A DNA stretch of 64,000 nucleotides, from positions 1,932 to 65,931 of the forward strand of contig JBFHDX010000005.1 of the NCBI GenBank assembly GCA_041584475.1. Direction: 5' to 3'. Below the pieces are notes generated by a model that had not been told where the DNA came from, did no database searches, and worked only from the letters and a program-made list of their open reading frames with translations. The number at the start of each line of letters is the position of its first letter. Positions within the stretch are counted from its first letter, which is position 1. This document shows, piece by piece, positions 36,840 to 39,010 of the stretch. A program made the position numbers and the translations under genes. This stretch comes from Alphaproteobacteria bacterium (GTDB lineage Bacteria > Pseudomonadota > Alphaproteobacteria > UBA8366 > JADFVY01).

Positions 36840-37421
36840 TCAATCCGTACAGTCCGGATCGGGCCTCCAGCGAGCGATCATGTCGGCCGCGCGCGACTTC
36901 TCGTCGGCCGTCATGCCGGTTGAGATTGCGGCATTGCGTGCGTTCGCCCAATCGTTTCCGGACTTGCCCGCGAGGCCAAGCCACAACGATGCTTGCACGG
37001 GATCGCGCTCGACCCCAATGCCGCGCGCATAAAAGTCACCGAGGTTCAGCTGGGCGATAACGTGACCGCACCGCGCGGCACGGCGATACCACCACGCCGC
37101 CGTCGCCTGGTTTCTTCGGACGCCGTTCGCTGTGGCGGTATTGCCGACGAGGCCCGAGAAGTAAAGGTCGGCGATCGCGGCCTGCGCGTCGCCGTCGCCC
37201 GATTTCGCGAGCGGGAGCCACTCCTCGTACGCTGCGCCGTAGTCGCCTGCGTCGTATGCGGCAAGGGCGGTTTCGAAATCGGCGCGGGCCGGCGCCGCGC
37301 CGCTGCCCGAGAGTCCGCCAATCAACAGCCATATCGCCGGTAATGCGCGTGCCAACCGGCCGCCGAAAAAGTGAGGGGCGGGCCGGGCAGCTTCCCGCCC
37401 CCCGAGGGAGGCTCCAGTCAA
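36840..37421 (-). CDS. Sel1-repeat (SLR/TPR-like) protein with signal sequence
   Basis: 193 aa. Hydrophobic N-terminus [22 protein letters not shown]. Sel1-type motifs ([49 protein letters not shown]). Its ATG (37419..37421) overlaps the stop of the upstream gene (37418..37420). Confidence 0.8.
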
Positions 37422-38569
37422 CGGATCCGATATTCGTCAGGGAGGAACATCATGCTGTCCTGATCCTCCGCGACGCTGGCGTGACACTCGTAGCAGAACC
37501 GCATGCCCGCCGAGTTCCTGCCATTGGTCACGCCGAAAACCGATCCGTTCGGCATTATCATCGTGTATTTCCAGTTGTAGCTGGCGTTGTTGAAGCCGGC
37601 CGGCATCTTCTCCATGATGAAGAGCGGCCCCGGCGATACCCGCCCTCTCGTGTTGACGGCGAAGCTGTCCTTTGCGAGGACAGAGCCTACGGGCATGGCA
37701 CCAGATTTCTCGAATGCACCATAGGCCCGCGCTTTGCCGTTCGCGAAGTTCTGCACGTAGCGCCCGCCATGCGTGGCCGACTGGTAGGCGACGCGGCTGT
37801 AGCGGCGCCAGCCCTGATAGGCGGCGGCGACGGCGTTGCCCGATTTGGTATAGGCCGCCTTCATCGGGCCCGAGACACAGTCATAGGCCTTCGCCGCCTC
37901 CGCCTCGGTCAGTTCAACCGTCGTGCCCGCAGCACACGGGTTGCACGGATTGGCAGCGCACGGATTGCAGGGGTTCGCGGCCGCGCACGGATTGCACGGA
38001 TTCGTCGCCGCACAGGGATTGCACGGGTTCTTGGCCGCGCACGGGTTACAGGGGTTCGCGGCCGCGCACGGATTGCACGGATTCGTCGCCGCACAGGGAT
38101 TGCACGGGTTCTTGGCCGCGCACGGGTTACAGGGATTCCGCATCGCCGTCCGGGCGAGGCGCGGAATCAAGCAGTTGACCGCAGCCGCCGCGCAAGGATT
38201 GGCGGCGCATGGGTTGCACGGACTGGCGGCAACGCTCTTCGGCGCGCACGGGTTGCATGGATTCGTCGCCGCGCAGGGGTTGCAGGGATTCGCTGCGACG
38301 GTCTTGGCCGCACAGGGATTGCACGGGTTCGCGGCCGCGCATGGATTGCACGGGTTCTTCGCAGCGCATGGATTACACGGGTTCTTTGCAGCGCATGGAT
38401 TACACGGGTTCTTTGCAGCGCATGGATTACAGGGTGCGCATGCTGCCAGGGCCTGGCCGGCCACGACGACGGAAGCACCGCTGATCGCGATACCAGCGGC
38501 ACCGGCGCCCAACGCCAGCGCCACCGGGATCACGGTGGAGGCCAGCATCCTTGCCTTAAGGGGATTCAT
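37418..38569 (-). CDS. Secreted fusion protein: about 170-aa CNPC/NPC cysteine-repeat region plus C-terminal cytochrome P460-like haem domain
   Basis: 383 aa. Signal-like N-terminus [26 protein letters not shown]...GQALA. Residues 44..212 are AA[KTA]-NPC-NPC modules (35 Cys by hand count). The C-terminal part has [41 protein letters not shown] and the haem c motif CYECH (37481..37495), which together match my recollection of the P460 family. Confidence 0.8.
37934..38440 (-). repeat. In-frame coding array of 9-nt NPC units, mostly as 27-nt AA[K/T/A]-NPC-NPC modules
   Basis: Spans the first Cys codon (aa 44) to the last repeat Cys (aa 212). Two blocks are separated by the unique segment [18 protein letters not shown]. 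Confidence 0.9.
37971..38132 (-). repeat. Perfect 81-bp tandem duplication inside the repeat array
   Basis: 37971..38051 and 38052..38132 are identical on direct reading (gggttcgcggccgcgcacggattgcacggattcgtcgccgcacagggattgcacgggttcttggccgcgcacgggttacag). Each copy encodes the 27-residue unit [27 protein letters not shown]. Confidence 0.9.
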
Positions 38570-38689
38570 TGAGTCCTCGCTTGATTGCCAGTGATTCGTC
38601 GGCGCCGCGCCGGAGAGCCGAGTCGACGGACGAAGTGCCCGCCGCTTTCTCTCCGGCGCGTGTCGATCAGCCTGTCGTTCCTCGCAAAC

Positions 38690-39010
38690 CTACTTGTTGG
38701 CCGCGCACGGATTGCACGGGTTGCAGGGGTTGCAGGGGTTGCAGGGGTTGACGGCGAGCTTCTTCACCGCGCAGGGGTTGCACGGGTTTGCCGCCGCGCA
38801 CGGATTCTTCGCCGCGCACGGATTACACGGGTTCTTGGCCGCACAGGGATTGCACGGATTTTTCGCCGCGCACGGATTGCTCGGGGCGCATGCAGCGAAT
38901 GCAGGCTTGCTGACGATCGCACCGGACAACGTCGCCGCGGTCATCCCGGCGCCGACGGCAAGTGCCAGCGGAATGACGGTCGAAGCAAGCAATCTTGACT
39001 TGTAAGGCAT
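38690..39010 (-). CDS. Small secreted CNPC/NPC cysteine-repeat protein (106 aa), paralog of the N-terminal half of 37418..38569
   Basis: ATG 39010 preceded by GAGGGAGGA. Signal-like [39 protein letters not shown], then [66 protein letters not shown] (14 Cys). Confidence 0.75.
38705..38890 (-). repeat. In-frame NPC repeat array of the small protein, including (NPC)x5
   Basis: Contains 9-nt units. ggggttgca recurs in tandem around 38721..38750. Confidence 0.85.

Follow-up and report, generated by a model that had tools for sequence, protein, structure and literature searches.

A widespread P460-type haem protein, predicted to be exported, with Asn-Pro-Cys repeat arms and an arm-only paralogue in Alphaproteobacteria

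A 64,000-nucleotide stretch of alphaproteobacterial DNA (hereafter the window; assembly GCA_041584475.1, contig JBFHDX010000005.1, positions 1,932 to 65,931) carries two neighbouring minus-strand genes for related cysteine-rich proteins. The larger gene (37418..38569) encodes 383 amino acids with 38 Cys: 35 between residues 44 and 212, a single one at C231 and two in the motif CYECH. The smaller (38690..39010) encodes 106 amino acids with 14 Cys, a predicted signal (residues 1-39) being followed by NPC repeats that end in (NPC)x5. The pair can be described with some solidity as a Lys-type P460-fold haem protein with two disordered, Lys-rich poly-thiol arms, together with a paralogue that consists of an arm only; export and haem attachment are predicted. 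Work on cytochromes P460 has been confined almost entirely to nitrifiers and methanotrophs, where they are small single-domain enzymes converting hydroxylamine to N2O or NO, and their hallmarks are hydroxylamine oxidation and a Soret band at 440-460 nm. The combination of a Lys-type P460 domain with NPC arms, in contrast, occurs at a minimum of 584 loci in species-representative genomes, mostly labelled as heterotrophic marine Alphaproteobacteria. This is a widespread variant of the P460 family that has not been described before, and the poly-thiol module of Asn-Pro-Cys units to which it is coupled is uncharacterised as well. As to function, the reading tentatively preferred here, by analogy, is that the haem is catalytic and acts on the thiol arrays tethered to it, most likely in the oxidative handling of inorganic sulfur species.

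Re-reading of the sequence gave the two minus-strand open reading frames (ORFs), the Cys counts, CYECH, the terminal (NPC)x5 and the near-identical N-termini (compared over 17 residues) just as an earlier note on this DNA had claimed. That note had also placed both genes on the minus strand, and this reading held. The minus strand is the coding strand because both ATGs are preceded by Shine-Dalgarno (SD) sequences (GAGGA for the large gene; GGAGGA, 7 nt upstream of the ATG at 39010, for the small one), because the GC content at third codon positions (GC3) of the minus-strand frames (0.77-0.79) resembles that of neighbouring genes (0.75-0.76), because an SD is present at 48 of 49 orthologue starts, and because the architecture recurs in at least 1,495 clusters of homologous proteins. 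In the 48 orthologues the start preceded by the SD is the full-length one, with its predicted signal peptide. The plus-strand mirror ORFs (438 and 223 amino acids, with 'HGLHGF' repeats) were rejected on GC3 (0.56 for the 438-residue ORF), SD sites and homologue conservation, and are by-products of the repeat.

The C-terminal 169 residues (215-383; 37421..37927) are modelled as a P460/c'-beta fold in which the P460-defining Lys position is kept, preceded by a family-specific N-terminal helix. The AlphaFold2 (AF2) model of this domain has a mean predicted local distance difference test score (pLDDT) of 92.9 and a predicted template modelling score of 0.89. The ten best Foldseek matches in the PDB are all P460s or cytochromes c'-beta (E 3.5e-6 to 1e-2, probability 0.99-1.00), and the eleventh has a probability of 0.33; the matches include 6hiu (E 3.5e-6, template modelling (TM) score 0.66), 9hrk, 7ead, 7s5o, 2je2, 8gar and 6e0z. 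The beta-rich fold is thus shared with the cytochromes P460 of Nitrosomonas europaea and Methylococcus capsulatus (2je2/2je3 and 6hiu; PF16694), with E values of 3.5e-6 to 4e-4 and TM scores of up to 0.66. Alignment of the family with 18 canonical P460s by hhalign gave Prob 84% and E 7.5e-6; the N. europaea reference sequence was 99% identical to the database entry. The claim of two paralogous Cys-repeat proteins, one of them fused to a P460-like haem domain, is borne out by these comparisons, and the two segments cited earlier as P460 hallmarks (14 and 10 residues) are present in the large protein. At the level of sequence the relationship is distant. Identity to canonical P460s is just 15-19%, PDB searches with the haem-domain sequence and profile found no match, and the Pfam model PF16694 (Cytochrome_P460) supports the assignment in part: the large protein scores 26.2 bits (E 1.2e-5), just below the gathering cut-off of 27, whereas its homologues clear it with 29-34 bits.

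The CxxCH motif and the crosslink-Lys position are held in common with canonical P460s. A single C-terminal CxxCH, represented in the window by CYECH (37481..37495; C359, C362 and H363 in residues 359-363), is found in 118 of 120 homologues and aligns with the canonical P460 motif, whose His is the proximal ligand. K300 (in LAKDSF; 37670..37672), invariant in both family alignments, aligns with the invariant KEL Lys of canonical P460s, which is Lys70 of mature N. europaea P460. The haem-crosslinking residue is Lys70 in the N. europaea enzyme and Lys78 in that of M. capsulatus, and in N. europaea cytochrome c'-beta the crosslink position is taken by Met79 (PMC11928373, Table 2). Since the window protein has Lys, and not Met or Phe, at this position, its haem domain is classed as P460-type, and a covalent crosslink is predicted. 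It differs in this from the cytochromes c'-beta (7ead, 7s5o, 6hih), which have the same fold and haem motif. Most of the 50%-identity representatives of the subfamily (173 at E < 1e-30) have Lys at the K300 position, and a few have Met, so that a minority of its relatives share the c'-beta residue. R270 is plausibly the equivalent of Arg44, as judged by eye from the alignment. The distal carboxylate, which serves as a proton relay in P460s, is Glu96 in N. europaea and Asp102 in M. capsulatus (PMC11928373, Table 2). The loop after the Lys strand is shorter in the window family than in canonical P460s, and the equivalent of Glu96 is therefore uncertain: it falls within a 9-residue indel, and hhalign sets the near-invariant E320 (MEKM), on the partner strand, 3 residues off the Glu96 position. 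E320 is a candidate for the distal carboxylate.

The same haem subfamily also contains repeat-less members. In one relative, P0406, the P460-like domain forms the periplasmic part of an adenylate/guanylate cyclase, to which it is joined via a transmembrane segment, and in others it is fused to caspase-like (P0443) or TIR-like (P0470) domains. These fusions suggest that this haem fold is used as a sensor in those relatives.

Compared with canonical P460s, which are exported, as is predicted for the window protein, the window family adds the N-terminal helix, a linker that probably docks on the haem domain, and about 170 residues of poly-Cys arms. The predicted export signal of the large protein (residues 1-42; 38444..38569) has the n-region MNPLKAR, a long hydrophobic core and an ALA-A site, and the N-terminal motif K-x-R-L-L-S-T-T-V-I-P is kept in homologues and in the small paralogue. 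Export is read from such sequence features, and the long conserved h-region could also be a membrane anchor. The N-terminal LAAC can alternatively be read as a lipobox. However, lipoprotein anchoring was rejected, as a lipobox-like triplet precedes the first Cys in just 25-32% of family members. Cys-repeat block 1 (residues 43-131; 38177..38443) is built of NPC-NPC-AAK units and has a median of 14 Cys across the family (range 6-32). It is followed by a conserved 13-residue linker with C133 (residues 132-144; 38138..38176) and by Cys-repeat block 2 (residues 145-214; 37928..38137). Tandem Repeats Finder detects at 37950..38138 an 81-bp unit in 2.3 copies with 96% identity, which corresponds to 27 amino acids with three NPCNPCAAx; because of this recent duplication, the arm is seen to be still expanding.

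In the full-length AF2 model, built on a 47-sequence alignment, the haem domain has pLDDT values above 90, and most of both repeat blocks lies at 30-48 (30-48 for block 1, mostly below 50 for residues 155-214 of block 2). Both blocks are accordingly modelled as disordered arms, and structure prediction, which the earlier note had left as a question, gives a P460/c'-beta fold for the domain and disorder for the repeats. The linker, whose mean pLDDT is 91 for residues 131-140 and 72 for residues 141-150, probably packs on the haem domain as part of the folded unit, given the high value of its first part. Nearly all full-length homologues have its motif, C-x-[VI]-P-R-L. Distant relatives, repeat-less ones included, have either both or neither of two cysteines, that of the linker and that of the 'AYDC' helix (C231), and because of this co-occurrence C133 and C231 may well form a structural disulfide. 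The order signal, block 1, linker, block 2 and haem domain is kept in nearly all full-length homologues. As the single C-terminal CxxCH, the linker motif and the repeats recur in essentially all of them, the architecture is far beyond chance.

The repeat region itself matches no Pfam or NCBIfam family, apart from spurious low-complexity matches to Amelogenin and Cornifin, and is thus not an annotated domain. In 109 full-length relatives it has a median length of 149 residues and 32 Cys (range 15-57), and consists of A (24.5%), C (21.5%), P (16.4%), N (14.8%) and K (8.2%), with only about 0.5% aromatic residues plus His and 0.4% acidic residues. The commonest Cys context is N-P-C. The earlier note had compared C-N-P-C with the CxxC of thioredoxin, a likeness that does not survive the comparison with relatives: since their arms are made of single-Cys units, with a Cys spacing of 6 for NPCAAK and 5 for ANPCA, what is conserved is Asn-Pro-Cys and not CxxC. 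A thioredoxin-like CxxC oxidoreductase was rejected for the same reason, CxxC being dispensable in relatives, and also on the modelled disorder of the repeats. A disulfide ladder or rigid rod was rejected on the random Cys parity (60 of the 109 relatives have an odd and 49 an even number), the hypervariable repeat number and the disordered AF2 model. Although 82% of Cys spacings are multiples of 3, a polyproline-II arrangement with Cys at every third residue was rejected as well, because the spacing-5 (ANPCA) relatives make the triplet phase non-essential. The haem-regulatory Cys-Pro motif does not apply, the residue order here being Pro-Cys.

The family is very large, unannotated and undescribed, and not peculiar to the window genome. 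The P460-NPC fusion accounts for at least 1,495 protein clusters at 90% identity, none of its proteins has an informative annotation name, and literature searches on the repeat and on P460 together with cysteine-rich proteins found nothing relevant; a 2025 review of the P460 superfamily mentions neither fusions nor repeats. The statement that no P460 with a Cys-repeat extension or a repeat-only partner had been described is in keeping with this. The best 80 fusion loci come almost all from metagenome-assembled genomes (MAGs) of marine Alphaproteobacteria (Rhodospirillales, Kiloniellales/Pelagibius and Sneathiellales), many of them from oxygen-minimum or redox-interface waters (Saanich Inlet, Black Sea, Arabian Sea). 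Small arm-only proteins with an export-type signal, of about 90-130 amino acids, form a family of their own with 571 clusters. It includes a protein of Denitrobaculum tricleocarpae, whose genome assembly is an isolate record and not a MAG. Fusion and small paralogue are rarely adjacent as in the window, in only about 7 of 65 loci.

A second class of fusions, of about 270 amino acids, consists of a signal peptide, an NPCAAK arm, a monohaem domain of SoxA/TsdA/di-haem-peroxidase type and a second NPCAAK arm (e.g., L094 5401..6219, L167 7125..7934, L119 6883..7737 and L087 6001..6510). An invariant Cys in its motif 'MVQFCM' is a possible ligand in a His/Cys haem, and the genes adjoin DUF6969, DUF302 and YeeE. 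In a further relative, P0492 (710 amino acids), an ANPCA array lies inside the haem domain, in the hairpin loop just after the crosslink-Lys strand; the remainder of this protein looks chimeric or frameshifted and has no CxxCH. As the Asn-Pro-Cys repeat is found N-terminal to P460 domains, on both sides of the SoxA-type domain, in the P0492 hairpin and alone, it behaves as a mobile module tied to catalytic haems.

Three types of synteny surround the P460-NPC fusions. In type 1, that of the window's clade, Dus is followed by the small gene, the fusion and a Sel1-repeat gene, and then by NlpC/P60, AsnC and DEAD genes on the opposite strand. In type 2, HAD, MsrB, DUF6969 and FGE-like genes are divergent from the fusion. 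In type 3, Suf/Rrf2 genes, with or without a cytochrome c gene, precede the fusion and Sel1. In 22 of 81 loci the fusion adjoins a gene for a class I cytochrome c, which might serve as electron partner. Five of six sampled contexts of the small protein carry a putatively exported DUF302 protein, a YeeE/YedE-family transporter (PF04143) and DUF6969, often with a P460 fusion, an FGE-like protein, cytochrome c or DsbD_TM in addition. The reverse test started from loci fetched by DUF6969 alone (metagenome loci L098-L177; further DUF6969 contexts are L085/L086, L091, L092, L094 and L096), and found an NPC-repeat ORF in 31 of the 44 metagenome loci of at least 6 kb. P460-NPC was present in 10 of the 44 and SoxA-like-NPC in 12, never both, so that the two are mutually exclusive alternatives in DUF6969 loci. 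DUF6969 (PF22308) is a His-rich, apparently cytoplasmic protein and a near-dedicated neighbour of NPC-repeat proteins; its sequence has no match in the PDB, and a literature search on it found nothing relevant. The neighbouring FGE-like protein is a generic member of the SUMF1/EgtB/PvdO family without clear assignment, and the idea that the NPC repeat is an FGE substrate (CxPxR vs CNPCA) is speculation. The DUF302+YeeE pair is reported from within sox clusters of Sulfitobacter (PMC11034169). Neighbourhoods outside the window point to sulfur trafficking rather than metal resistance; some 170 were either viewed directly or checked against a set list of partner genes, and cop, czc or mer genes were seen in none of the contexts inspected.

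According to the preferred reading, the haem would be a catalytic low-potential centre, and the arms and the free small protein would supply arrays of reactive periplasmic thiols on which it acts. These thiols would serve either as covalent acceptors and carriers of oxidised inorganic species or as a tethered reductant, and the number of repeats would fix capacity, not structure. SoxAX, which loads the SoxY cysteine, offers an analogy by which inorganic sulfur, as thiosulfate or sulfane sulfur, would be the likeliest co-substrate. Oxidative sulfur handling is favoured because the arms join two unrelated catalytic haem domains, occur free and cluster with a set of sulfur-compound transporter genes. 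The window system and SoxAX-SoxYZ both pair a catalytic c-type haem with a flexible Cys-bearing arm; sister proteins carry NPC arms on a SoxA/TsdA-like domain, and the DUF302+YeeE neighbours are common to sox clusters. However, the window system has dozens of Cys where the Sox arm has one, its haem is P460-type and not SoxA-type, the SoxY-type GGCGG motif is absent, and no sox structural genes, soxB, soxZ and soxCD included, were seen in the neighbourhoods inspected.

Other observations also weigh against this reading. YeeE, DUF302, DUF6969 and FGE are absent from the window's 64 kb, as are cytochrome c, MsrB and Suf genes, so that the sulfur link is one by association, drawn from other lineages; even among the 80 closest genome loci, YeeE or DUF302 is present at only 2-3. 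With 30-60 Cys the arms would far exceed the need of a SoxY-like carrier, and storage or metal binding would fit better. To our knowledge, all characterised P460s work on NH2OH or NO and not on sulfur. The distal carboxylate, which is required for NH2OH oxidation, has no unambiguous position in the alignment, and the haem-domain relatives P0406, P0443 and P0470 suggest a sensor role in those proteins.

A plausible, though less likely, alternative is a periplasmic metallothionein-like buffer, in which the arms and the small paralogue hold Cu(I), Zn, Cd or Hg as thiolate clusters and the haem is independent or alters the redox state of the metal. Like metallothioneins and other Cys-rich stores (SmtA/BmtA, Csp1), the repeats are very rich in Cys (about 21%), rich in Lys and nearly devoid of aromatic residues and His, and they show CxxC and CxxxxxC spacings. 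They are modelled as disordered, and apo-metallothioneins are disordered too; their variable number would suit a capacity role. The best NCBIfam match of the Sel1 protein is MerG (phenylmercury resistance), but its 48 bits fall far short of the cut-off of 350 and reflect only the Sel1 repeats. On the other hand, no homology to any metallothionein family was found in Pfam or NCBIfam, the unit is Asn-Pro-Cys rather than CxC/CxxC clusters, and the proteins are predicted to be exported, not cytosolic, with repeats fused to a haem domain. Csp1, moreover, is a folded four-helix bundle, whereas the NPC arms are modelled as disordered. The oxidising periplasm is an unusual place for metal binders based on Cys, metal-resistance or metal-transport genes were seen in none of the roughly 170 neighbourhoods, and the recurrent partners are sulfur-related or of unknown role.

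It is also plausible, though again less likely, that the protein is a P460 enzyme detoxifying NH2OH or NO, with the thiol arms as a nitrosative/oxidative sink or tethered reductant and the resulting S-nitrosothiols or disulfides recycled by a DsbD/CcdA-type pathway. K300 on the crosslink-Lys position, R270 and E320 would be in place for such chemistry. In canonical P460s an {FeNO}6 intermediate is attacked by a nucleophile, for which a thiolate could stand in (PMC11928373). The cytochrome c that adjoins the fusion at 22 loci, the MsrB, Suf/Rrf2 and DsbD_TM genes in several contexts and the origin of many MAGs from oxygen-minimum or redox-interface waters are likewise in favour. However, no nitrification or denitrification genes lie nearby, an FNR/NnrR-type box is not enriched upstream of orthologues (the k-mers there are only GC-rich), the arms are also joined to a SoxA/peroxidase-type haem without known NH2OH chemistry, and the position equivalent to Glu96 is ambiguous.

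It is improbable that the P460-like domain, instead of being an enzyme, senses a ligand (gas) in the periplasm, with its signalling modulated by the arms. The cyclase, caspase-like and TIR-like fusions of its relatives (P0406, P0443, P0470) and the guanylate cyclase genes beside some loci speak for it, but an output domain is missing from the window protein, the Sel1 partner and the small paralogue are not signalling proteins, and Lys-type P460 haems are catalytic in every characterised case (PMC11928373). Least credible of all is a passive low-complexity spacer or tether that keeps the haem domain off the membrane, with the small ORF as a non-functional duplicate: disorder in the model, the location between the N-terminal hydrophobic segment and the haem domain and the existence of repeat-less members would agree with it, but the 1,495 or more clusters differ in spacing and number and yet strictly conserve Cys and the N-P-C triplet, an arm can also form a free C-terminus or make up an entire mature protein, and the small paralogues are a conserved 571-cluster family with their own SD and export signal.

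In a wider and doubtful extension of the preferred reading, oxidative handling of inorganic sulfur on the arms, Asn-Pro-Cys arrays would be a new class of periplasmic poly-thiol carriers, loaded or unloaded oxidatively with inorganic sulfur, or perhaps with selenium or nitrogen species, by tethered haems of P460 or SoxA/TsdA type that are interchangeable. The arrays, DUF6969, DUF302, the YeeE-family transporter and the FGE-like protein would constitute an undescribed chalcogen-trafficking system, widespread in marine Alphaproteobacteria, for which a P460 haem would have been recruited to non-nitrogen chemistry. If the haem does act on the arm thiols, this would place a P460 haem in a new reaction context, and the protein would represent a new kind of periplasmic poly-thiol protein that might matter for the chemistry of sulfur, N2O/NO or trace metals in the sea. 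The conserved, uncharacterised gene set defined here (NPC proteins, DUF6969, DUF302, YeeE-family transporter and FGE-like protein) is open to study in the isolate-derived genome of D. tricleocarpae, and possibly in Pelagibius, so far represented by named MAGs, if a cultured strain carries the system.

The 120-nt region between the two genes of the window (38570..38689, minus strand) contains a stable, long GC-rich hairpin that lacks a U-tract (-54.4 kcal/mol, z = -3.0), and neither a T-run terminator nor an Rfam match was found in it. The hairpin could control the relative amounts of the two products, either as an attenuator or by acting on mRNA stability. Upstream of the genes, no sigma-70 promoter, terminator or Rfam match was found. 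Downstream, the Sel1-repeat gene (36840..37421, minus strand; Pfam Sel1 E 1.3e-10) encodes a putatively exported protein. Its start is ambiguous, being either the TTG at 37421, in which case the gene abuts or overlaps the stop codon of the fusion, or that of the NCBI call of 171 amino acids. In 30 related loci, which belong to two synteny types, the fusion is followed at a distance of up to about 100-150 bp by a Sel1 gene in the same orientation, a probable operon partner.

Automatic annotation often truncates or splits P460-NPC fusion genes. In the NCBI record of the matching locus (GCA_041611595.1) the small ORF is called as a gene, and the large one (L001 4787..5512) is called as 241 amino acids from Met143, with loss of the signal and block 1. 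For the D. tricleocarpae orthologue (L086 307..1485) the public call covers only a P460 fragment of 167 amino acids.

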